From Eledone cirrhosa (Eukaryota), in NCBI GenBank assembly GCA_964016885.1, contig OZ024744.1, positions 92,132,001 to 92,196,000 on the forward strand: DNA of 64,000 bases, in the 5' to 3' direction. Positions within the stretch are counted from its first letter, which is position 1, and the number at the start of each line of letters is the position of its first letter. Under the pieces are notes generated by a model, which saw nothing but the letters and a program-made list of their open reading frames with translations, did not search any database and was not told where the DNA came from. Positions 3,807-54,520 of this stretch are shown in pieces. The position numbers and the translations under genes are program-made.

Positions 3807-4381
<575 letters not shown>

Positions 4382-4499
4382 TATATATATATATATATAT
4401 ATATTCCCTTTCTTTTTCGCCCGTTGTTTCCTCAGCCTCATTTTCATATTTCTTATATTTTGTTTTCAAATCCACATTTAATAAAAACAGCATGTTTTA

Positions 4500-4533
4500 T
4501 TCATTCTGACGACTGAAACCACTGGTAAATGAA
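4500..4533 (+). ncRNA. HHR motif with stem II deleted (inverted partner of 3628-3685)
   Basis: ttcatt CTGACGA ct GAAA ccactgg TA aatgaa; 4477-4565 is the reverse complement of ~3597-3710. Confidence 0.65.
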
Positions 4534-4559
4534 ATAATTATCTTATGTTGTTTATTACA

Positions 4560-4630
<71 letters not shown>

Positions 4631-4635
4631 TATGT

Positions 4636-5076
4636 ATTTACGATATTAAATAAATGGAAACTATATTTATAAAACCATATTTATTTCATTATATATATTT
4701 CAGGGATATCATATTAAAAATATGTTATGCCTTCTTCAGACAAAATACAATATAAACAGTCTTATAAATAGATCTGACATACCTTTCAACTTCGACTTCT
4801 ATTTGAAAATCAACTTTTCAAATAGAAGTCGAAGTTGAAAGGTATGTCGAATCTATCTATTTATAAGACTGTTTATATTGTATTTTGTCTGAAGAAGGCA
4901 TAACATATTTTTAATATGATATCCCTGAAATATATATAATGAAATAAATATGGTTTTATAAATATAGTTTCCATTTATTTAATATCGTAAATATACTCCA
5001 AATACTTGTTGAGTGCTTTTATATCAGTTATAAATATTTACTCGTTGTTAACCCAACAATTTAAATAAAACTTTGC
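4636..5076. mobile_element. Palindromic mini-element with two opposed HHR motifs
   Basis: Near-perfect palindrome ~4636-4993 centred ~4810; HHR motifs 4682-4747(-) and 4881-4946(+) with CTGAAGA core and GAAA TATATA TA. Confidence 0.75.
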
Positions 5077-23569: not shown

Positions 23570-26500
23570 GGTATAAACGTTTGTGTAAGTATAATAAAGC
23601 CAAAACAATGCAAGTATGGACATAGAATAAAGAATGCAAATGCAAAAGATATTGTTGACAATTAGTCTTTTATCTTAGATTTATTTAAATGTCCTTATTT
23701 TCGAGATAATATCTCTTCTTTGGAGGGAAGTAAAGCGGTTGAACCAGTGTTCTAAATAGCTTGCCAAGTCATGCTGACAGGAAATGGTATAGAGTATCTG
23801 TTCTATCTCTCATGTCAAAGAGTTAAGGTTAAGTGGATAAACAGTAGTCTCCCTTTAAAAGGTTTTTTTTTTGTACATGCCTGTTTAAGTGTGTGGGAGA
23901 ATGCATGAAAGTGTAAGTATGTGAGTGTGTGTGTGTGAGAGTGAGAAGATATGTCTATACGTAAATGTGGGGGATAGATGTTATCTCGTGTTAGAACTGG
24001 TCTTTGTGTGTGTATGTGTGTGTGTGAGAGAGAATAAGTGGAGGTGTAAGCGTGTGTGTGTGTGTGTGTGTGTGTAAATATGGGGTTAGAAGCTCTATCA
24101 AGTTATAAATTGGGTGTTGAGTTCTAGTCTATTATTGATTGGTGGTTGTGTTTTGTCTATAATTACTGCTTCCTTAATTCTAAGATTGCCGAGGTTTCTT
24201 TCCTTAGTTTCTATCCTAACTGTTATGGTTTTGTCGGTGTTTTTGCATTTAACTAAGTTAAATTAGGAAGCGTTAGTATTGAGGTGTTCTTTCATTCTTA
24301 TGTGGAGTGGTCTGGTGGTGCTACCTACGTAGAAGTTGTTGCATTTGTCACACTCTAGTCTGTATACGACGTAAGCCTGGTGGCATAGGTCTGTGTCGTT
24401 GATGGAGCAGTTGGCTAGCCTGCAGCAGTTGTCTTGTCTCGTGGAGTGTCTTTTGGTTAGATGTCCGCGTAGAGAAGAACCTGAGTGGGCCAGTTGGATA
24501 TCTAGTCCCTCTCGTCTGATAGATCTGCGGATGGCTGTTGTTGTTTCGTCACTGAAGTGTGGGAGCTTCAGGAAGTAAGTGTTAGTGCCTCGGGTGTGGT
24601 GTCCTCTGTTCTTTCTGGCACGGTTTGTGGTGGATGTCGTGTATCCATTCAGTTTGAGTACTTCCAGGAAATGTGTGGTGTGTGTGTCTCGGCCTCTAGC
24701 GTCGGTGCATTTGTTCCGGATACGTGTAGTTCGTTCCTTATGTATCCGAACTTAGCGCCGGCTGGGAGGGCCGATCTGAAATGTACGAACAGGTCCCTGC
24801 TGGTGGCGTTTTTATAGAAGCAGGTGTGGATGTTGCCTTCCTCTGTTACCCTGAGTTTGAAGTTCTGTAGGGATAGGGATCCGCGGTCATCGGGGTGTTC
24901 CATGCTGAACTTTATACTGGCGTCCATGCTGGAGAATGTTGTGTATATTTTATCTGCCTCCTCACGGGATGATGTAAGGATGAGTATGACATCTACATAT
25001 CGGGTGAATAAGGTATGGGAATGGCAGGTGTTGAGGGCTCGGCATTCTAGCTGGTTCATATAGGTGATGGCCAGCAGGCCCGATAGGCTGGATTCCATGG
25101 GTAATCCTGTTGTCTGTCTGTATGTGTGGTGGTGGAAGGTGAAGGAGGCAGATAAAATATACACAACATTCTCCAGCATGGACGCCAGTATAAAGTTCAG
25201 CATGGAACACCCCAATGACCGCGGATCCCTATCCCTACTGGACTTAAACTCAGGGTAACAGAGGAAGGCAACATCCACACCCGCTTCTATAAAAACGCCA
25301 CCAGCAGGGACCTGTTCGTACATTTCAGATTGGCCCTCCCAGCCGGCGCTAAGTTCGGATACATAAGGAACGAACTAACACGTATCCGGAACAAATGCAC
25401 CGACGCTAGAGGCCGAGACACACACACCACACATTTCCTGGAAGTACTCAAACTGAATGGATACACGACATCCACCACAAACCATGCCAGAAAGAACAGA
25501 GGACACCACACCTGAGGCACTAACACTTGCTTCCTGAAGCTCCCACACTTCAGTGACGAAACAACAACAGCCATCCGCAGATCTATCAGACGAGAGGGAC
25601 TAGATATCCAACTGGCCCACTCAGGTTCTTCTCTACGCGGACAGCTAACCAAAAGACACTCCACGAGACAAGACAACTGCTGCAGGCTAGCCAACTGCTC
25701 CATCAACGACACAGACCTATGCCACCAGGCACACGTCGTATACAGACTAGAGTGTGACAAATGCAGCAACTTATACATAGGTAGCACCACCAGACCACTC
25801 CACATAAGAATAAAAAAACACCTCAAGACTAACGCTTCCTAATTTAAGAAACACTTAGTTAAATGCAAAAACACCGACAAAACCATAACAGTTAGAATAG
25901 AAACCAAGGAAAGAAACCTCGGCAATCTTAGAATTAAGGAAGCAGTAATTATAGACAAAACACAACCACCAATCAATAATAGACTAGAACTCAACACCCA
26001 ATTTATAACTTGATAGAGCTTCTAGCCCCATATTTAACCCCCCCCCCCACACACACGCACGCACATACGCACACACACACGCACGCACACACACACACAC
26101 ACGCGCTTACACCTCCACTTATTCTCTCACACACACACACATACACACACAAAGACCAGTTCTAACACGAGATAACATCTATCCCCCACATTTATGTAGA
26201 GGCATATCTTCTCACACTCTCACACACACACACTCACATACTTACATCTTCATGCATTCTTCCACACACTTAAACAGGCATGTACAAATAAAAAACCCTT
26301 TTAAAGGAAACTACTTAACCTTAACTCTTTGACATTAGAGATAGAACAGATACTCTATACCATTTCCTGTCAGCATGACTTGGCAAGCTATTTTGAACAC
26401 TGGTTCAACCGCTTTACTTCCCTCCGAAGAAGAGATATTATCTCGAAAATTAAGGACATTTAAATAAATATAAGGTAAAAGACTAATTGTCAACAATATC

Positions 26501-26675: not shown

Positions 26676-26709
<34 letters not shown>

Positions 26710-27111
26710 AAAGTTATATTTAAAATTGTTGGGTTACAACTAGTAAATATTTATAACTGATATAAAAGCACTCGACAAATATTTGGAGTATATTTACAAT
26801 ATTAAATAAATGGAAACTATATTTTCTATATATATATGTATCTATCTCTATTTCCTCTCTCTCTCTATATATATATCTCTTTCTGTTTCTTTACATGAAG
26901 TTCTTCGCTTTATCTATCTTTCCATCTCTCTATTTTGTTCCATGCATTTCTTTTTTTTCTTCCTTTTCTTCGTTTTCTGTCTTTCTTTCTTTTTTCTCTC
27001 TTCCTTTCTCTCTGTGTAAAATTTTTTCACTGCCAGCTTAAACCTCTTCAAATGGAAGTCGGTGTTATAACGGTATGTCGAATCTATTTATCTATAAAAC
27101 TGTTTATATTG

Positions 27112-27177
27112 TATTTTGTCTGAGGAAGGCATAGCATATTGTTAATATGATATCCCCGAAATATATATAATGAAATA
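27112..27177 (+). ncRNA. HHR motif (mini-palindrome family)
   Basis: tattttgt-CTGAGGA-..-GAAA TATATA TA-atgaaata. Confidence 0.65.
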
Positions 27178-27229
27178 AATATGGTTTTATAAATATAGTT
27201 TCCATTTATTTAATATTGTATATATATAT

Positions 27230-27660
27230 ATATAAACGTTTGTATATGTATAATAAAGCCAAAACAATGCTGGTATGGACATAGAATAAAGAATGCAAAT
27301 GCAAAAGATATTGTTGACAATTAGTCTTTTACCTTAGATTTATTTAAATGTCCTTAATTTTCGAGATAATATCTCTTCTTCGGAGGGAAGTAAAGCGGTT
27401 AAACCAGTGTTCTAAATAGCTTGCCAAGTCACGCCGATAGGAAATGGTATATAGTATCTGTTCTATCTCTAATGTCAAAGAGTTAAGGTTAGGTGGATAA
27501 AGAGTAGTCTCCATTTAAAAGGTTTTTTTTTTGTACATGCCTGTTTAAGTGTGTGGGAGAATGCATGAAGGTGTAAGTATGTGAGTGTGTGTGTGTGTGT
27601 GTGAGAGTGAGAAGATATGTCTATACGTAAATGTGGGGGATAGATGTTATCTCGTGTTAG

Positions 27661-27663
<3 letters not shown>
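27230..27663 (-). mobile_element. Third copy of the PLE 3' terminal region
   Basis: Near-identical to 23570-23996. Confidence 0.85.
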
Positions 27664-27721
<58 letters not shown>

Positions 27722-27782
27722 TAAAATAATATATATATATATATATATATATACAATGATATATATATATATATATATATAC

Positions 27783-28148
27783 AATGATACTAAATAAATG
27801 GAAAGTATATTTATAAAACCATATTTATTTTATTATATATATTTCAAGGGTAACCAAGACAACATTGGTACACTTTCATCAGATAAAATACAAAGTTTGT
27901 TTTATAAATAGAGACATACCCATGGAAATCATACCTTATCGGTTTGTATTTTATCTGATGAAAGCGTACCAATGTTGTCTTGGTTACCCTTGAAATATAT
28001 ATAATAAAATAAATATGGTTTTATAAATATAGTTTCCATTTATTTAATATCATTGAATATTTACTCCAGTAAACTGTTGAGTGCTCTAAATCAGTTATAA
28101 ACATTTATGTTTGTCGGACTTCCAACAAATTAAATAGCACTTCTACGT
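27783..28148. mobile_element. Palindromic mini-element with two opposed HHRs (27826-27890 -, 27947-28011 +)
   Basis: tattttat-CTGATGA-aag..ccaa/ttgg..ctt-GAAA-TATATA-TA-ataaaata; perfect 8-bp stem I; (TA)n on both sides. Confidence 0.8.
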
Positions 28149-35605: not shown

Positions 35606-36872
35606 AGAATTTCAAAGCTTTCCAAACACTCAGATATTTACGAAATGTAATTTATACTATATTTACTAATGGACGGATTGTTGTGAAAATTTGCAGTATT
35701 TAAAGTAAAGACTTTAATCTTTAATGCGATGCTGCCATTTTTCTAAATGTTACGCATGCAAGATTTTGTTAATTAACTCTTAAGAACCTCTAATTATATT
35801 TTTTTTTGTTACACGGTGTTATTCAACAGAAAATATCTAAAATGGGGGCGTTTGTTACTTCAAATAATTTATAGTATCTTTACTGGTAAAGAAATTGTGA
35901 AAATTTCTAGTGTTAACGGTACTAAAGTAAAAACATTAATCTTTAATGAGATACAGTTATAGAGCTTTTCAAGAATGTCTTGTTAATGGGGTTTCTTGTA
36001 GTTTCATGCAGTTTGCTAATTCAAATGTTTATAGTATCTTTACTAGTGGACAGATTGTTGTGAAACTCTGTAATATTAAAGTAAAGACATTAATTTTAAT
36101 GTGATGTAGTTATAGTGCTCTTTTGTGCTTTTCAAGAATGTCTTGTTAATGTGGTTTCATGTGATACTGGATGTTAAGAGTTAATGTGATACAGTCGTAG
36201 TACTGTTTTGTACTTTTCAACAATGTCTTGTTAATGTGGTTTCATATGGTACAGGATGTTAAGAGTTAATGTGATACAGTCATAGTACTGTTTTGTACTT
36301 TTCAAGAATGTCTTGCTTATGTGGTTTTATGTGGTTTGTTAATTTAAATGTTTATAGTATCTTTACTAGTGGACAGATTGTTGTGAAAATTTGTAGGAAC
36401 CAAACTGAAGACTTTAATTTTTGACATGATGCAGTCATTGTGGTGCTTTGTACTTTCAAGAATGTTCTGTTAACGTGGTATCAAGTGGTACAGGACATTA
36501 ACAGTTATTTAAAAGATTTTGGCCACAGTCCCCACCTCCGTTCCCTCAGATTGAAATGGAGAATGATTATTTTAAACATTAGTTATCTCCCTCTGTTAAC
36601 CTTTTTTACGTCGTATTTACTATTCTCCGGCCACTCTCCAAGATAGCTGACTAAATACGCATGTGTGGTTTTTTCTACCCCATTTTTTTTACTCATTTTC
36701 CCCATTCATCACTCTTTACTTTCTATTTATCTTCTACTTTTAACTCTTTCTTCTGATGAATGACTATTGTGCAAAATATTAAGTCTCTCTTCCAGCTATT
36801 TCAAGCGTTAAACCAATATATTTCCTCGATGTACTGTGCCATTTGTTTTGTTATTTTTGTTATTACTTTTAC

Positions 36873-36930
<58 letters not shown>

Positions 36931-36935
<5 letters not shown>

Positions 36936-37125
36936 AACGAGTAGGACCCCGACGGCTGAGCTCAAGCCGTTTCGACGGCTAATTCTGGACTCCAGAATTA
37001 CCCGTCGAAACGGCTTGAGCTCAGCCATCGGGGTCCTACTCGTTCCTATTACCCACTCTACTACCCTAAGTATTGAGTACTTTGGTGCGTTATGGTCCAC
37101 CTGGTTCCTTACCACATTTCTTCCG

Positions 37126-37130
<5 letters not shown>
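36931..37130. mobile_element. Palindromic mini-element with the 3' half of an HHR; relatives at ~39055-39170, ~42880-42915 and 43095-43300
   Basis: Palindrome ~36931-37048; gtc-GAAA-cggct tgagctc agcc-aTC-ggggtcc (GTC in the opposite arm). Confidence 0.7.
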
Positions 37131-37185
<55 letters not shown>

Positions 37186-37278
37186 TGTCAACATGAATGG
37201 ACCTGTTATTTTTATCTAAAGACATTTTTTCCAATTCCATCCTGCCCGACCCCTCAATCTATTTTATTTCTCATTCTT

Positions 37279-37314
37279 TCTTCTGATGAAGGACTAGCGT
37301 CCGAAACATTAAGA
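37279..37314 (+). ncRNA. Minimal HHR motif (degenerate relative at ~36749-36784)
   Basis: CTGATGA a GGAC tagc GTCC GAAA cat TA aga; stem I weak. Confidence 0.65.
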
Positions 37315-37499
37315 CCCTCGTCCTGCAAGCGTTAACCTAATATATACCTTCCATATACTGTACCGATTGTGTTGTCAATTCTGTTTACCTTTTACATACA
37401 TATTGCTTCCACATCATTCATTCTCATCCCGGGAACAATTTTGAATAGCGCCAGTTCGTAATTTGAACTCGGGAATTTTATATTCTCCGAGTGAAAAGA

Positions 37500-42748: not shown

Positions 42749-42937
42749 ATATATATATACATACACATATATAAATGTACAGATTAAAGTTTAAGTAAAG
42801 AATCGCTGCTTTCACCCTTTTTCGAGATCTTTTGAAACTTCTGATTTTAGTCTTCACATTTATTATTACTATATAGCTGTAGAAACGGCCAGAGCTCAGC
42901 CATGGGGGTCCTGACTCTTTACTTACACCCCCCCCCC

Positions 42938-43013
<76 letters not shown>

Positions 43014-43296
43014 AATCAGTTATAAACATTTATATTTGTCGGACTTCCAACAAATTAAATACCACTTCTACTTATATATATACATATATATATAACGAAG
43101 GAAATGTGGTAAGGAACCAGATGGACCATAACGCACCAAAGTACTCAATACTTAGGGTAGTAGAGTGGGTAATAGGAACGAGTAGGACCCCGACGGCTGA
43201 GCCCAAGCCGTTTCGACGGCTAATTCTGGACTAAAATTTTAGTCCAGAATTAGCCGTCGAAACGGCTTGCGCTCAGCCGTCGGGGTCCTACTCGTT

Positions 43297-43800
<504 letters not shown>

Positions 43801-43807
43801 TATATAT

Positions 43808-45017
43808 ACCAGATAGAAAAATGCGTACAGCAAAAAAAAGTAATATTGTTGGAATATAAACCTTTAAAAATACAGGACAAGAAACTAAGATAAAACTTTA
43901 AAAAATAGGACAAGAAACTAAAATAAAACTTTAAAAGAATAGGACAAGAAACTAAGATAAAACTTTAAAAGAATAGGACAAGAAACTAAGATAAAACTTT
44001 AAAAGAATAGGACAAGAAACTAAGATAAAACTTTAAAAGAATAGGACAAGAAACTAAGATAAAACTTTAAAAGAATAGGACAAGAAACTAAGATAAATCT
44101 TTAAAAGAATAGGACAAGAAACTAAGATAAAACTTTAAAAGAATTGGACAAGAAATAAAAAATTTTACAATATTAGTGGCAAAATTTTTATTGGTAAAAA
44201 ATCGAGTTCCACATTCATAGGCTCTGGGTTCCACATTCAGAGGTCGTCGTCAGACCGGGGGGGGATCATTTGATCCTGGTTTGAACTCCAATTGGGCCAT
44301 AACCATACCCCTATTTCATCATTCGGCGACACGCCTCATGTGTCATGCATAATGTGAATGGACCATGGGCCCATGAGCACAGATCTTGAGCAGCAGCGGA
44401 CGGTCTTGTCGTCCCGCTCATCCTTGATCTTGACCAACTCGTCCATCTTCTCCTTGCATCTTGTCCTTGAGTTCAAGTCCGGCAGTCCAGATGAATGCGT
44501 GCCAGAGCTTTCAGGTACAGGAAGGGGGAGCAGGAGGACTGGAGGGATGACGGGACAGAGGGAGGGAGGACCGGTGGTTGAGGGAGGTGCCGTAGTCGGT
44601 GGTCAGAGTCGACATCTTGTCCCGGTCGTCTTCTCCATCTTCGTCTGGTGTTGCGGGACCAGAAGTGCATTCTTGGAGGAGACCTGCAGCTGCATCGGCC
44701 AATTCTTCTTGCAATGGTCATTCTGACGGAGCAGAACTGCTCAGCCAACCAACTCCAACCAGAACCAACCGCTCAGGGGCAACGCACAATGAGAGCATGA
44801 CAATTATTATGCACTAATCAAGAAGATACTACAAAAAACAATTTTGCCACTAATATTGTTGTAAAATTTTTTATTTCTTGTCCAATTCTTTAAAGTTTTA
44901 TCTTAGTTTCTTGTCCTATTCTTTTAAAGTTTTATTTTAGTTTCTTGTCCTGTATTTTTAAAGGTTTATATTCCAACAATATTACTTTTTTTTGCTGTAC
45001 GCATTTTTCTATCTGGT
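43808..45017. repeat. Inverted repeat (43808-44186 / 44840-45017) containing a 34-bp tandem unit
   Basis: Unit aggacaagaaactaagataaaactttaaaagaat, ~9 copies left and ~3 right. Confidence 0.9.
44336..44714 (-). pseudogene. GC-rich, apparently frameshifted small gene of unknown function
   Basis: MQEELADAAAGLLQECTSGPATPDEDGEDDRDKMST / PPTTAPPSTTGPP..KEKMDELVKIKDERDDK..; AATAAA at 44187-44192(-). Confidence 0.35.
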
Positions 45018-45289
45018 CTACTATTTTTTAAGGCAATGCAAGCAACAACTATCTAATAATTAAATGATCATAGTGAATTACTGACAAGTGATTGACTTTT
45101 AAAGTTCTTTTGAGTATAATTGCAATCTAGTTGAGGCAACTGGCTTAATGACAAAGCTAGTAAATCATGAATGCATTTGAGATGATTAGTGCATAATAGT
45201 GAATTGGTGAAACTTGTACATTTCAATGGTGTTACAACAATAGATGTAAGTTATATAGTAGTAATACTTTATAATTTTAACTTTTTAGA

Positions 45290-45649
45290 ATGGACAAAAA
45301 CCCATGCAAAGAAATGACTTTGACTGCAGTGATTCTCTCCAATTTACTTACAAAGCAAAACGTGGTCAAATACCTTATCATCTCTGATAAAATGCCCATT
45401 GAATCACTGAAAATGGGATGCATGGAATTCCTCATAAAATGCACCTATGAATCGGAAGCCATCACATATATCAATGGATATAGGGAGTTGTTCACACTGG
45501 AAGACCATCACTTCATTTGTGACTTCATCAGTTATCTCCACGATTATCTCAGACACTCAATGCCATTGATGAGAGGTGATCCAATATGTGAGCATGTAAC
45601 TAATCTTATAGAAGTTGTTATCGACCATCTTGCTTTTAGTGACATTTGA
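45290..45649 (+). CDS. 119-aa ORF with BACK/SPOP-C-terminus-like helical motif
   Basis: SNLLTKQNVVKYLIISDKMPIESLKMGCMEFL resembles [31 protein letters not shown] by eye; possible 43-nt GTAAGT..TTTTTAG intron 45246-45288; AATAAA 45735-45740. Confidence 0.5.
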   Translation: MDKNPCKEMTLTAVILSNLLTKQNVVKYLIISDKMPIESLKMGCMEFLIKCTYESEAITYINGYRELFTLEDHHFICDFISYLHDYLRHSMPLMRGDPICEHVTNLIEVVIDHLAFSDI

Positions 45650-45829
45650 CTGATTTGACTGATAATGATGTATTTTTAAAAAGTATGTGTACATTCTTGT
45701 TACTATTTTAAGGCAATGCAAGCAACAACTATTTAATAAAATTTAAATTTAAAAATGACCATTGTGCATTACTAGTATGATGACATTTTATTAAGTCACA
45801 AAATTAGTCAGTCAGCCATAGAACAAGGA

Positions 45830-46501
45830 TCAGGTGGCAAAAACATTGGCAAAAATTTGTGTTAATTTAAGATTTCCAACATTGTTCAAATGAATCATAT
45901 CTGGTTTGAAGTCAGATTTGTCAAATTTTGACCAATTTTCAATGTTGTGAAGATTGGGCAAGTTCAATTTTTGAATCATTTCTTTCATGCAGTAATTAAA
46001 CTTTTCCAAACGAGAATTTCTCTTGCCCAAGTCATTTTTATTTTCAAGTACACTTTGTGGACGTGGAATGACACCACTGTAGAAAATGGGTGTACAGTGG
46101 TGCTTTTCCGCTATTTTCTGTAGCCTTGCAAAGAGACTCTTCCCCTGTTTTTCCGGTTTTGTGCCTCGAGTGGGCACTTTGTCCTTAATTTACAAATAAA
46201 TGATTAATAAAAAATACTTGGGCAAAAATTATTGTATTACTTTGCACAGCTTTGTAGTGCCAACGGTGCGACGAGGATTCAGATCATTAGAGCCGACATG
46301 AACCACCAATACTTTCACAAAAGGACAACAGATAACAATGTTGGCGATTAACATTACCTGGCCCTGACGGGCCCCAGGTATACAAAATATCTAAGTATTT
46401 TTATTGGTATGATAAGTAAATACATTTGAATTAATATTTTTATACCTTCTGGTCATTCGATTTCGCTACATTTCTAATTATGGATTTGTAAAAACTGGCA
46501 T
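45830..46501 (-). pseudogene. SGNH/GDSL hydrolase, three exons (46446-46501, 46241-46390, 45830-46183)
   Basis: Block I remnant xSIIRNV, block II IPGAR, block III VVHVGSND, YSGVIPR, block V DMIHLN; two phase-0 GT-AG introns of 55 and 57 nt; 1-nt frameshift near block I. Confidence 0.8.
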
Positions 46502-47198
46502 GAATGTGAATTTGATCAGACCAATTGCCCGATTTTAGTGAAAAGTTTTGATTCGAAATGGAAATACTCCATTTCCGTGCCATGGAAAAAATGAATAAGC
46601 CGATCAAAAAGCCGATCAAACATCATTTTTAATTAAGCGAAATTAGTGGATGCAAATCTCAGAAAATATTGTACACTATTCGCACCTATCGCACTATTCG
46701 CACCTATCGGTACAAAAATATAGCGCACTATTCGCACCTATCGGTACAAAAAATCGCACGACTGTTAATAATACTAGAAGTGCAAACTATCTGTTGAATA
46801 CCTGGTATATGAAGAGCAACCGATACGATCGGTCGGCGATCGGTCTTGAAGAAGAATGAAGAATGAAGTGAAATTTTGGTCTGGTTGTTGTCATCGGTGT
46901 TTCGCAGAGATGCCGGCACGAACAAAGGTGTCAGTGACACAAAGTTGTCCGCTTGAACAAAGGTGTCGGTCCGACAAAGGTGTCAGTCAGACAGACAATC
47001 AGACAGTGTCACAGTCGGTGCGACAAAGCGATCGATGCGATTAAAAAAAATTTAACTCACATGTTTACCTATATTTTCGCAAACTATTGATAGATTGGTA
47101 CAAAAAATAGCTTTGATAATAAACATAAATTTTTAACGAAGTATTTAAAAAGCATTTTAGCAGTGAAAAGTGAATTAATGTTTCACATTGACGCAAGT

Positions 47199-47322
47199 AG
47201 GGCCGTTCAGAAATGACGTAGTCAATTAGGAGGAGGGGATTCGGAGATTTGACTACATTTGACTAACGTAATCACAATCACAAGAGTTCTGCCGAAAAAA
47301 ATTCGTCGTTTCTGATGACCCC
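47199..47322. mobile_element. Small MITE-like inverted repeat
   Basis: gggccgttcagaaatgacg / cgtcgtttctgatgacccc. Confidence 0.45.
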
Positions 47323-47604
47323 GTAGAGAGAGAGAGACTAGTAATTACCTCCCCTAGCGTCACGCTTACTACTCACTCACTTGAACACAAGATTTATCAG
47401 CAAACTTTGATTATAAACTTTATCCCGCTGGACCAAATTTCTAGATTTTTAAGCCAAAAGATACGTAATGATCTACTGTTCATGCACATATAGGTTTTAT
47501 CTCAGTTAAATAAAGTAGAGCCGCGCTGTACTGTCGTAAACAGACGATTGCCAACGAAAACACGACCATTACAATATTACTAAACGGACTACCGTCCGTT
47601 TAGG

Positions 47605-47667
<63 letters not shown>

Positions 47668-48721: not shown

Positions 48722-50836
48722 TCATCATCATCATCATCATCATCATTTTACGTCCGCTCTTCCCTGCTCGCAATGGGTCTTATTCAGCACAACGTCTCTC
48801 CCTTTGTCATGGTCCTTCGTCCTCTCCGCCGTGAGCTTCAATGATCTGAGGTCTGTTCTCACCACCTCCGCCCATGTTTTTCGTGGTCTACCTCTACCAC
48901 GTCTTCCTTCAACTGGCATTTCCTGGCACTTCTTCACCCATCGGTCATCCTCCATGCGCATCACATGTCCATACCACCTCAGTCTCCTCTCCCGTACACT
49001 ACATTCTATCCCTCTCAGACACAGTTTCTCTCTCAACACATTCATGCTGGGTCGTTCACGCACATTTACATTGCACATCCAACGGAGCATGCTTGCCTCA
49101 TTTCTCTCCAGCCGTCGCATATCCTCTGCAGTTGCTGCTCATGTCTCACTACCATGCAGCATCACGCTCCTCACACAGGCATCATATAACCGGCCTTTTG
49201 TACGCAGTGAGAAACCCTTCTTCGTCAGCAGAGGAAGCAGCTCCCTAAACTTCTTCCAACCCGTCCTTATTCTAGATACTATGGCCTCGGAACCCCCCCC
49301 TCCCATGCTAATCTGATCTCCTAGGTACCGGAAGCTATCCACCACTTCTATAGCACCCGCCTGCATTTGGAAAATGTGTCTATCAATGCGACTTCTACTA
49401 TCTAATTTCCCTGTACATCTGCATACGTATTTCTCCCTACCTGTTAGTTTGCCTGCTATCCCGCTACATCTCTTGTGCCCCCAGGATCTGCATTGTGTGC
49501 ATTTTATAGAATTTATGCCAGTTCCTTTTCTGCATATCGAACATGGCCATTTCCCTGACGGAATCAACACTTTTGTCTTAGCTAGGTTCACTCTCAGTCC
49601 TCTTGCTTCCAACTGCTGTTTCCATAGCCAGAATTTATTCTCTAGCTCCTCTACTGATTCTACTATAAGAACCAGATCGTCAGCATAGAGAAGTTCTCAT
49701 GGGCAGCCAGTCTTAAACTCCTCTGTTATGGCTTCGAGGACTATAATGAACAAGAGAGGGCTGAGGACCGAACCTTGATGTACTCCTACTTGTACCTGGA
49801 ATTCCTCACTAAACTCCATTCCTACCCTCACTTTACTGACAGCTCCTCTGTACAAAGTTTACACTGTCCTCACAAGCCATTCCCCAACACCTAGTTTCCT
49901 TAGGGACCACCAGATGACAGATCGGGGTACCCTATCAAAGGCCTTCTCTAGATCAACAAAGGCTCAGTATAGTGGCTTATTCTTCTCTAGGAACCTCTCT
50001 TGTAATTGTCTCACTAAGAAGAGGGCATCTGTTGTACTTTTCCCAGGCACAAAACCAAACTGCATCTCATCTAGTTTGACCCTTTCTCTATTTAGTTGTG
50101 CTAATATCCTTTCTGCCACTTTCATACCTGATCCATCAGTTTTATACCCCTATAATTCCTCCTCTCCAGAGCAACCCCTTTACCATTGTAGCAATTTATG
50201 AGAATACTGCTGCACCAGTCTTTGGGTATGACACCACCATATATAGCCTGATTGATGATGCATGCAACCAGTTTAATGCCTACGTCCCCTGATGCCTTCA
50301 GCATCTCAGCAACTATTCCCGATGGTCCAGCAGCCTTACCATTTTTCATTTCCCTAATCGCCGTTTGGACCCTATATTCGTCAATCTCAATAGCTGGTCC
50401 CTCTGTCAGGTCTACTGAGGGTAATTTCTCTCTCTCCCATTCGTTCTCCACATACATCAGTCTCTCATAATGACATTTCCAGGCCTCCTTTTTCTGGTCA
50501 TTCGTGACACTAAGTACACCGGCATCATCCCGGACACACTTATCTCCAACAACATCCTGATTTGCATTGACACACTGCCTTGTAATGTGGAACACCGCAC
50601 GCCTCTGATCTTCCCGTCGCAGAACATTGGCAAACCTCCTACTCTCAGCCTCCCTGCGTGCTAAGTACACCTGACATCTAGCTTCTCTCTTAACAGCTGT
50701 ATATCCTTCTCTACTCCCACCCTTTTTCCAAGCCTTCCATGCTAGTATTTTGTCTCTAATGGCCTTATCTACTGTGCTGTTCCACTACCAGGTCACTCTC
50801 TGTCTGGTTGGAGCTCTGCTCCAACCACAAGTTTAA
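48722..50836 (-). mobile_element. RTE-clade LINE relic (~2.1 kb) with (GAT)n tail
   Basis: ORFs 50122-50670, 49139-49612, 48743-49120 homologous to 41-1659; multiple stops and frameshifts. Confidence 0.95.
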
Positions 50837-50852
50837 TCTATATATATATATA

Positions 50853-51246
50853 TGTCAACTCTGGATGTCGGTGAGCATGTCCAGCTAACTTCAGTCTCCT
50901 CTGTGTCACTTTTGAGCTGACTTTTGGGATGCTCCCATACAGCTCTGAGCTTTTCATCCTCAGTGTATACTGATTAATGTTCAGAGCCATCCTCAGCATT
51001 CTCGTGTAGCACCCATCCACCATCTGAGTGAGTTTCTTGGTCAGTGTCCAAGTCTCAGACCCATACAGCAGCACAGACTCCACTACAGCAATGGACACAC
51101 TAGAAGAGGAAGACCAAGGTTAACGTATGTTGATGCCCTAAGGACAGACACTGGTCTATTGGAGACGCAGGACATGGCAGCGATAATGAGGGACAGAGAC
51201 CGCTGGAGAGAACTCGTCCATGGATCTCGGGAATTTTACCCGCCTT

Positions 51247-51248
<2 letters not shown>
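50853..51248. mobile_element. RTE-like LINE 3' end with inverted 5' part
   Basis: Minus 50853-51098: SVLLYGSETWTLT..RRLKLAGH; plus 51099-51248: TRRGRPRLTYVDALRTDTG..MRDRDRWRELV..*; (AT)n at both ends. Confidence 0.75.
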
Positions 51249-51296
<48 letters not shown>

Positions 51297-52269
51297 TCAT
51301 CATCATCATCACCGTTTTACGTCCATTCTTTCACACTAGCATGGGTTAGACGGGTTGTCCTGTTGTGGGCAGTGGGAAGAGCTGGGGACATATTGTCTAT
51401 ATGCTTTGGCTTCAGCTTGTTTCCGTGGGAAGTCGGGTCTTCTGTATTACTGCGTAACACCAGAGGTCTAGGGCTTGTGTCATATATATATATATATCAA
51501 ACCCATTCCAACCATGACGATCACCATGTGTTTCCTGTAAGCATGAAACCCAGAATAACATTATCAAACTAATCAAACATGATATACATATATTTTTTTA
51601 AAGATGATACTGGTGGAGGTATGATTTGAGAGGGATTTGACTGCTATTTCTAGCAGGTCAAGTAGCCATATGAAGGTCCCACTTCTGGATTCAGAAGATT
51701 GGACTGTGACTCTAGTAGGTAATGGTAGTGATATATATGATTTTGTAAAGTACCTTGTCATTGCCATCACCATCACCACCACCATCACCACCACCACCAC
51801 CACCATCACCATGATCATCATCTTCATCACTGCAACCATCATCATCATCATCATTATTGTCATCATCATCAACATCATCATCAACATCACCACCACCATC
51901 CATATCATCATCATCATCATCATCATCATCATCTATTGTCATCATCATTGTATTATCATTATTACCCTTTTACTCTTTTACCCGTTCCAACCATCCGGTT
52001 GAGGCCATTCTGGGGCACCGCCCTTATTGTCATCATCAACATCATTGTCACCACTTCCATCATCATGATCATCACTATTGTCCCCATCACTGTTACCACC
52101 ACCACCACCACCACCACCCGCTACCATGGGTTGGACAGGTTGTCACACACCAAGTCAGTACTTAGCTGGAACCACTTACTTACTAGACATAGGATGTGGG
52201 TGGGGGAGTAAATATACATCATGTTTACAAATGCACCTGGTGCCCTCTGTAGAGTTCATCTGGAGGTGT

Positions 52270-53589: not shown

Positions 53590-54095
53590 TACCGAGAGCA
53601 TAATAGCTAGAATAAGGATAGGATGGAAAATATTTTGAGAGTTACTCCCACTGTTGATTATAAAAGGCTTCTCCCTAAGTATAAAAGGACAACTGTATGA
53701 CATCTGTGTGCAAGATAGTAAAACATTGGCAAATGACTACAGTTGACAGGCGTAGGCTGGAGAGAAATGATGCTTCGATGCTTCATTGGATGTGCAATGT
53801 AAATGTGAGAGAAAATCAGAGCTTGGATGAAATGAGGGAGAAGCTGGGTTTAAGAGGAATCCAAAATGGTGTGCAAGAGAGAAGACTGTGTTGGTATGGA
53901 CACGTGATGTGTATGGATGATGATCACTTGGTGAAGAAGTGCCAGGAAATCCCAGTGGAAGGAATTCGCAGTAGAGGACAACCAAGGAAAACCTGGTCAG
54001 AGGTGGTGAGAACTGACCTCAAATCACTGAAAATCAGCAAATGCCGTCCTGAAAAGGACCCGTCCAATCCATGCAAGCGTGGAAAATCTGACATA
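53590..54095 (+). mobile_element. RTE LINE 3' fragment
   Basis: RRRLERNDASMLHWMC..WYGHVM..GQPRKTWSEVVRTDL. Confidence 0.85.
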
Positions 54096-54124
54096 AAGTT
54101 AAGATTTTGTAGTTTGCTTGAAGC

Positions 54125-54520
54125 ATTGTTTCTACTTTTGGCACAATGCCAGCAATTAACCAGTACATTACTGGTACTTTACTTTATCGACCCCGTAAGG
54201 ATGAAAAGCAAAGTTAACCTTGGTGGGATTTGACCACAAACCGTAAAGGTACGTAACTCTATGCTGCAAAGCATGGCGTCAGACCCTCTACCGATACTGC
54301 CAATTCACCGCCCTCAGCATTGTATATAATAATATATAATTGTTTCTATTTTTGCCACAAGGCAAAGCAATTACCTCAGTGTATTACTGGTACTTTATTT
54401 TATCTACCCCGTAAGGATGAAAGGCAAAGTTAACCTCAGCGGGATTTGAACTCAGATCATAAAGGTGTATAACTCTATGCTGCAAAGCATGGCGTCCGAC
54501 CCTCTACCGATTCTGCCAAT
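54125..54520 (-). mobile_element. Two SINE A copies
   Basis: Reverse complement of SINE A at 54125-54313 and 54338-54520. Confidence 0.8.

Follow-up and report, generated by a model that had tools for sequence, protein, structure and literature searches.

A probable non-autonomous Helitron-like transposon with predicted SGNH-hydrolase-like and BTB/BACK-like cargo in Eledone cirrhosa

In the genome assembly of Eledone cirrhosa, a stretch of 64,000 nucleotides (NCBI GenBank assembly GCA_964016885.1, contig OZ024744.1, positions 92,132,001 to 92,196,000 of the forward strand; hereafter the window, in whose own numbering all positions are given) contains an element of 3,797 bp at 43809–47605. This element is probably a non-autonomous rolling-circle (Helitron-like) transposon, which is read on the minus strand from a 5′ TC to a 3′ CTGG, is inserted between A and T, and carries SGNH-hydrolase-like and BTB/BACK-like cargo; the probability of this reading is put at about 0.7. 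Assignment to the Helitron superfamily, in whichever orientation, can be held with greater confidence still. The original prediction had proposed an unrecognised large mobile element, either Helentron-like, giant Penelope-like or virus-derived, rather than host genes. The mobile nature of the sequence is supported by the steps in contig depth and the deletion forms described below, and the Helentron-like type comes nearest of the three, whereas the other two find no reverse transcriptase (RT), polB or capsid gene inside the element. The expectation of a large element did not survive, as the sequence is non-autonomous and too short to encode a Rep/helicase.

The case begins with the termini. 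The minus strand of the element starts with TC (as TCCT) and stops at CTGG, with an A preceding and a T following at the one locus available, and this combination is expected by chance with a frequency of approximately 0.3–1 % when both orientations and several registers are allowed. Joining the flanks across 43809–47605 yields an unbroken CA/TA run, and no target duplication is seen at this single locus, where the microsatellite could hide one; the register of the insertion between A and T is ambiguous by one base. The palindromic repeat adjoining on the left enters (TA)n at the same point (43808) in four of six other copies examined. At the 5′ end, the terminal hairpin noticed in the original prediction proved to be a stem-loop (47580–47603) with a 10-bp stem and a z-score of −4.1, which none of 200 shuffles equalled, and it is located between the terminal TC and the 5′ copy of an 11-nt subterminal inverted repeat. 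The two copies of this repeat begin 24 nt (5′) and 30 nt (3′) inside the ends, an equal match being found in 1 of 3000 control random 60-mers, and the repeat extends to 13 nt (47569–47581) with the letters that all four sequencing runs used for copy evidence show at 47569–47570. The TC and CTGG termini, the subterminal repeat and the identity of both arms (see below) as copies of the 3′ end had escaped the original prediction.

The element's 3′ end occurs twice, in arm A at the terminus and, inverted, in arm B in the interior. The two arms contain 8.9 and 2.9 units of a 34-mer, respectively, and 94 of their last 95 nt are identical. Copy evidence was drawn from the contigs of four runs (X1, X4, X5 and X6) from three organisms (A, B and C) over 44160–47625; contig depth is not copy number, and the joints and loose ends reported are those among the listed records. 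X1, X4 and X5 agree on the junction between segment 1, which separates the arms, and arm B (X5 by one loose end, with approximately 20 letters missing from the window copy), and record 25 of X6 runs across it. The junction is thus shared by three organisms and constitutes a fixed feature of the family rather than a 5′ inversion made at this insertion, so the earlier idea of a left part inverted in this copy is not supported, although an inversion predating the spread of the family is possible. In X5, a loose end behind 45011 (two records) shows a sister end in which CTAG is followed by T and then by unrelated sequence. In the same run the arm region is approximately 70 times deeper than segment 1 (614 versus ~9), which suggests a possible separate existence of the arm as a short element. 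The 34-mer array of arm B lies, for its part, between two inverted copies of the subterminal repeat (44851–44861 and 44974–44986).

Contig depth and deletion joints indicate that the element belongs to a multicopy family. Sixteen public runs were listed, of which 12 contain some of the stretch and five, from organisms A and B, half or more; the share in organism C is 0.24, and six further runs (organisms D–I), with shares of 0.05–0.13, were not used as copy evidence. A run assembling only 88 million letters contained 0.59 of the words, equal to runs of 1,400 million. No RNA run among those listed contains the stretch. In X1, the contig depth is ~2,000 over segment 1, 2,600 at 45097, 1,250–1,310 over gene 2, 560–630 over gene 3 and the CpG-rich region, and 2,324 over the last 260 bp, while the values for X4, in the same order, are 40–56 (outer), 12.6, 4–5, and 23 plus 25. 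These steps are due to deletion joints: 45159 is joined to 47344 in three of the four runs (the X5 joint has 254 letters on its shorter side), 45428 to 47344 in one, and 44199 to 44840, which removes segment 1, also in one, while a loose end at 46012 leads into the same 5′ module in one run. The deletions are internal, and both outer parts are retained in all forms seen. Their right-hand breakpoints fall within approximately 47302–47308, counting 28 letters absent from record 15 of X4, beside an internal inverted pair; three different deletions end at most ~6 nt apart near 47302–47315. The window copy differs from the X1 majority at 17 of 1,867 letters (~0.9 %; eight X1 pieces listed), and the family is young as well as multicopy. 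Gene 3 is absent from most copies, as judged from contig depth. Over 45183–47605, where the window differs, contigs from the three organisms (A, B and C) for the most part agree with each other, so that near-identical elements occur under three species labels, which may reflect either close kinship or transfer.

Table 1. Features of the element and of its immediate flanks (window positions)
Feature	Position	Strand	Description
Whole element	43809–47605	minus	3,797 bp; 5′-TC ... CTGG-3′; flanked by A and T; no target duplication
Left flank	43800–43808		(TA)n run closing a separate palindromic repeat
Arm A (3′ end module)	43809–44196	minus	AATAAA 44192–44187; 8.9 × 34-mer 43856–44155; inverted repeat 43851–43839; CTGG 43812–43809; weak palindrome
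Segment 1 ('gene 1')	44197–44829	minus	GC content 53 %; one minus frame has patches rich in third-position GC; long open frames absent
16-mer	44805–44820	minus	upstream of segment 1
Arm B	44830–45016	plus	the 3′ end repeated internally in inverted orientation; 2.9 × 34-mer; inverted-repeat copy 44974–44986; CTGG followed by T
Motif copy 1	45017–45065	plus	opens with TC, which adjoins the arm B CTGG; motif proper 45019–45065
16-mer	45183–45198	plus	48 nt upstream of the gene 2 splice donor; contains TTAGT
Gene 2, BTB/BACK-like	45290–45649	plus	119-aa open reading frame (ORF), resembling a BTB domain end together with BACK; upstream, a 43-nt GT-AG intron (45246–45288) is predicted
Motif copy 2	45701–45748	plus	~48 bp; AATAAA (45735) at its end
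Gene 3, SGNH/GDSL-hydrolase-like	45830–46583	minus	predicted exons 46583–46446, 46390–46241, 46183–45830; AATAAA 45792–45787
CpG-rich region	46581–47605		CpG observed/expected (o/e) 1.40; 12-, 18/34- and 17-nt short repeats
Internal inverted pair	47208–47218 / 47304–47315		adjoins the clustered deletion breakpoint
5′ module	47303–47605	minus	~300 bp; retained in every deletion derivative seen
5′ subterminal inverted repeat	47571–47581	minus	11 nt; begins 24 nt inside the 5′ end
5′ tip	47580–47605	minus	TC, then 10-bp stem-loop (47580–47603)
Right flank	47606–47665		TA/(TG)n microsatellite

Three small genes had been proposed within the element, of which genes 2 and 3 look real, while 'gene 1' contains no frame longer than 122 aa, no Pfam match and no homologue. 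Gene 3 is predicted to contain two phase 0 introns of the GT-AG type, 55 and 57 nt long, and its spliced frame of 213 aa has no internal stops. The residues S, G, N and H follow each other in the order of SGNH hydrolases (blocks I, II, III and V; motifs S-II, PGA, GSND and DMIH). Comparison with the Pfam GDSL family gave E values of 0.003–0.04 and 18.2 bits on one exon against a cut-off of 27, while in the Atlas the top match scored 0.96 and all of the 10 best family-bearing matches belonged to one family or clan, the displayed rows being GDSL. The single-sequence model of the protein reached a predicted local distance difference test score (pLDDT) of 42, with no Foldseek match at E 0.001. Among proteins of near length, a search with the form retaining the second intron returned 27 candidates, none at E 0.01; contig searches confirmed none of 4 and none of 166 candidate stretches, with no match among viral contigs. 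Sequence searches of the PDB gave nothing at E 0.001. The lone match of exon 3 in a representative search, a PYRIN/FIIND protein at E 3e-4, was dismissed as chance. The CpG-rich segment with short repeats described in the original prediction is indeed distinct, its CpG o/e exceeding the 0.20–0.68 of five other parts of the element, with tandem repeats at 46597, 46674 and 46922, and it is likely to act as the promoter of the SGNH gene.

In gene 2, the exon preceding the predicted intron contains an in-frame stop, which makes the ATG at 45290 the likely start. Its look-alikes in the Atlas are mostly BTB/BACK clusters (0.91–0.92), with nine of the 10 best family-bearing matches in one family or clan, while no BTB or BACK match was obtained from Pfam, a search among proteins of near length gave one candidate and none at E 0.1, and the model (pLDDT 48) had no Foldseek match. 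With the majority letters of the runs, genes 2 and 3 both remain open, with three residue differences each; in a family that is only ~1 % diverged, intact frames are no proof of selection. For segment 1, the longest frame remains at or below 124 aa with the majority letters, and 15 candidates of near length included none at E 0.1; the segment is likely a decayed captured coding fragment. As far as can be judged from sequence, genes 2 and 3 are predicted to be plausible accessory genes carried as cargo.

The original prediction also described a 16-mer common to the upstream regions of genes 1 and 2. Its exact copies, at 45183–45198 (plus) and 44805–44820 (minus), are the sole two in the window, where a third similar site has three mismatches; TTAGT, the word inside it, is presumably initiator-like. 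The common 16-mer suggests that the upstream regions of gene 2 and segment 1 may be related. The ~40-bp motif reported at 45019 and 45701 was likewise recovered, the copies at 45019–45065 and 45701–45748 being 88 % alike over 50 columns, with a core identical at 33 of 34 nt, and it folds into no hairpin on either strand. Among 500 Markov resamples, any direct 16-mer repeat was found in two and any inverted one in 25; the direct repeat of the motif exceeds chance, and the inverted 16-mer alone does so less clearly. What did not hold was the proposed unit of motif, ORF, AATAAA and motif, in that order: the AATAAA of gene 2 (45735) ends the second motif copy instead of preceding it, that of segment 1 is followed by arm A and not by the motif, and gene 3 lacks the 16-mer. 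The transition from arm B into the motif (45013–45020), where CTGG is followed directly by TC, resembles a head-to-tail Helitron junction, while the second motif copy lacks the TC; position 45017 may possibly be such a junction. A loose end of X4 behind 45051 shows the motif followed by a different sequence of 255 letters.

The proposed mechanism would require an autonomous partner elsewhere, the Rep/helicase of which would nick at the TC and displace the minus strand. Displacement would halt once the CTGG of arm A is reached, with pairing between the two inverted repeats as the probable guide (model in the accessible text of PMC3627910), after which the displaced strand would be circularised and inserted between A and T, for which (TA)n runs would offer many sites. 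Arm B would not halt displacement, because its 3′ end lies on the opposite strand; it probably originated when one copy inserted into another in the opposite orientation (model of Fig. 8 in the available part of PMC5148889). In single-stranded form, arms A and B would anneal as a stem of ~190 bp enclosing segment 1, and this would account for the form without this segment. Judged by contig depth, most copies are without gene 3, so the cargo is not required in cis.

Several observations weigh against this reading. Family membership is unproven, because no Rep/helicase was found among the 86 frames scanned of the 240 stop-free frames of at least 75 aa in the window (154 low-complexity frames were dropped). 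The 3′ palindrome is weak: it is imperfect, stops 13 nt short of the end and has a fold z-score of −1.0, equalled by 29 of 200 shuffles. The 5′ repeat lies 24 nt from the end, as against 0–2 nt in Helitron2 (per the accessible text of PMC3627910). The boundaries come from a single locus, the contigs are cut at 47597, and neither an empty site nor the flanks of a second copy were seen; no listed contig spans the whole element, and several joints have fewer than 30 letters on one side at 82 % likeness. A second loose end of X5, behind 45007 (two records), lacks a CTRR ending. Neither protein assignment reaches the Pfam cut-offs, and block I of gene 3 reads YKS rather than GDS, for which reason its enzymatic activity is uncertain; an X1 piece over gene 3 shows three differences, none of which falls in the YKS block.

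Comparison with known Helitrons shows that the end signals of two classes are mixed in the element. In the accessible parts of PMC11417382 and PMC3627910, TC, CTRR and insertion between A and T are given as marks of HLE1 and short asymmetric repeats as marks of HLE2. With HLE1 the element shares the 5′ TC, the 3′ CTRR (CTGG in arms A and B), the A-to-T target, gene capture and deletion derivatives. However, HLE1 has a strong 3′ hairpin, GC-rich and located 10–12 nt before the 3′ end, and lacks both subterminal inverted repeats and a 5′ hairpin, whereas the element has the repeats and the 5′ hairpin but only the weak palindrome, 13 nt from its 3′ end. Asymmetric inverted repeats of 8–16 nt characterise HLE2, and those of the element measure 11 nt, or 13 nt by the letters of the runs. 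With Helentron, HINE and Helitron2 elements (DINE-1, Cg_HINE), it has in common subterminal inverted repeats of 11–13 nt, one of them beside a stem-loop, and an internal tandem array; insertion between two Ts, T-rich ends and a 5′ subterminal repeat 0–4 nt from the end are all absent, this distance being 24 nt in the minus and 30 nt in the plus reading.

Closer parallels are found outside animals. The proto-Helentron of Phytophthora infestans (accessible text of PMC4067079 and PMC11417382) likewise has a 3′ CTRR (there CTAG), insertion between A and T without duplication, inverted repeats of ~12 nt, a 5′ stem-loop and extra ORFs. It differs in its TT start, its length of ~14 kb, its encoded Rep/helicase, a stem-loop 3.6 kb from the left repeat and its restriction to Phytophthora, whereas the present element starts with TC, has a stem-loop touching the repeat, encodes no transposase, resides in an animal host and contains an inverted duplicate of its 3′ end. 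FoHeli3–5 of Fusarium, classed as HLE2-reverse, share with it the 5′ hairpin upstream of the left repeat and the lack of a strong 3′ hairpin, and their asymmetric repeat of 13–16 bp has its 3′ copy 20–40 bp from the end, which the 30 nt of the element fits; they differ in the TGCCT start, the CTCCTGT end, the length of 9–11 kb, autonomy, the lack of an established target preference and the fungal host (available part of PMC5148889). The element fits the proto-Helentron and FoHeli3–5 best and works like them, a likeness of layout that does not class it as a member of these groups, which are defined by their transposase, an enzyme of the HLE2 clade with DUF6570.

The cargo also has a counterpart. 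The texim gene of fish is an intron-containing SGNH hydrolase gene carried by a Helitron (accessible text of PMC4021074); it is likened here by gene class. With as many as 15 exons, texim sits next to the coding region of the Helitron, whereas gene 3 has three exons, 213 aa and an atypical block I. Neither BTB nor SGNH figures among the captured domains that are listed in the main text of PMC11417382, a survey of 404 genomes, the accessible portion of which describes the reversed layout from Fusarium and nothing like the proto-Helentron among its species. Tandem arrays inside Helentron derivatives are known in oyster (PMC7492417) and composite Helitrons in bats (PMC4224331), according to the available portions of these papers. 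Recently active Helitrons of eight families are described for Octopus vulgaris in the accessible part of PMC13282606, and a repeat library may therefore already include a family like the present one. Neither this element nor an animal proto-Helentron was found described in literature whose coverage stops short of most subscription papers and of Repbase and Dfam, and in the literature examined the end layout has so far been reported only from fungi and oomycetes.

A more far-reaching proposal, which must be considered tentative and is doubtful on balance, is that the element represents the first animal lineage of the proto-Helentron or HLE2-reverse type, combining Helitron1 ends (TC, CTRR and the A-to-T target) with Helitron2 repeats, recently active in several related species, with exchangeable gene cassettes for the SGNH esterase, the BTB/BACK protein and further products behind the 48-bp motif, under a common core-promoter word and with head-to-tail joins of CTGG to TC. 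If this were true, a young animal family with intact accessory genes would bear on the relation of the two Helitron classes, and on whether SGNH esterases, gained separately in fish Helitrons, help rolling-circle elements. Helitron finders seek either TC and CTRR with a 3′ hairpin or short repeats with insertion between two Ts, and an element with mixed ends would be missed or mis-oriented. Without a transposase, it is a well-described non-autonomous transposon, mainly for transposon specialists.

The strongest competitor, although an unlikely one, is a conventional Helentron of the non-autonomous kind (HINE) read on the plus strand, in which arm A would provide the 5′ subterminal repeat and the array, 47569–47603 the 3′ subterminal repeat and stem-loop, and TC and CTGG would be fortuitous. 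A subterminal repeat followed by a stem-loop approximately 24 nt from the end is the canonical 3′ end of Helitron2 and HINE elements (accessible text of PMC3627910), and oyster HINEs have central tandem arrays (accessible text of PMC7492417). However, neither end has a T-run or a T-to-T site, the left subterminal repeat lies 30 nt inside with As before it, and CTRR followed by T recurs in arm B and, as CTAG, in the sister end. Less probable again is a separate foldback or terminal-inverted-repeat cut-and-paste element, consisting of arm A, segment 1 and arm B and joined to an unrelated gene-bearing repeat. The long, nearly identical inverted arms with 34-mer arrays and their excess depth in X5 over the rest would suit such an element, but there is no target duplication around 43809–45016, single contigs link arm B to the motif and the far end (record 19 of X5) and segment 1 to arm B (record 25 of X6), the depth of segment 1 is near that of the far end, and the two copies of the subterminal repeat link arm A to the far end.

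That the element is a copy of a retroelement, Penelope-like or other, whose 5′ part is inverted is highly improbable and largely refuted, even though the left neighbour is a palindromic repeat of a kind seen at Penelope ends, RT and GIY-YIG pieces are present at 24266–25838, and giant Penelope-like elements can carry GDSL esterases (accessible text of PMC6431247). Against it stand the junction fixed across three organisms, the retained introns and deletions that are internal instead of 5′ truncations; no RT and no hammerhead-core-like word is found within 43809–47605, and Rfam gave no match anywhere in the window. BTB/BACK proteins occur in large DNA viruses, and the compact genes, short introns and common 16-mer would also agree with an integrated DNA virus or a Polinton-like remnant whose small accessory genes would have a promoter word in common. 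This origin is still less credible, given the Helitron-type termini, the lack of capsid, polB, integrase and long terminal inverted repeats with target duplication, and the absence of any match of the SGNH protein in viral contigs or of the hairpin patterns in viral and metagenome contigs. The least credible explanation of all is a locus of host genes, whether single-copy or segmentally duplicated. The CpG depletion of the gene 2 unit (o/e 0.21) is as would be expected of a methylated host gene, but the depth changes in steps, one sample contains four forms, the contigs of three organisms are nearly identical and the flanks are microsatellites. As to Cryptons, described in PMC3212892 (accessible part) as having terminal direct repeats of 4–6 bp and a tyrosine recombinase, the TATA-type words at both ends belong to the microsatellite, and no recombinase was seen.

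The remainder of the window is microsatellite-rich and contains pieces of RTE-, L1/Tx1- and Penelope-like retroelements, the RTE and L1/Tx1 clade names being those to which the long interspersed element (LINE) pieces presumably belong. The palindromic repeat bordering the element on the left (43431–43808) has relatives at ~3960–5070 and ~26700–28140, which are 76–87 % alike, and eight hammerhead-core-like words (41–42 nt; of 24 loose matches in the window) fall in copies of this type; judging by their sequence, these repeats are likely to be Penelope-type terminal repeats. A broken Penelope-like element on the minus strand at 24266–25838 comprises an RT piece (E 2e-5) with a tail resembling GIY-YIG. 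Another family of palindromic repeats lies between (TA)n runs at 42860–43300 and 36760–37330, and RTE-like LINE pieces are located at 211–1659, 48743–51330 and 53685–54233, with a PHD finger inside the RT region.

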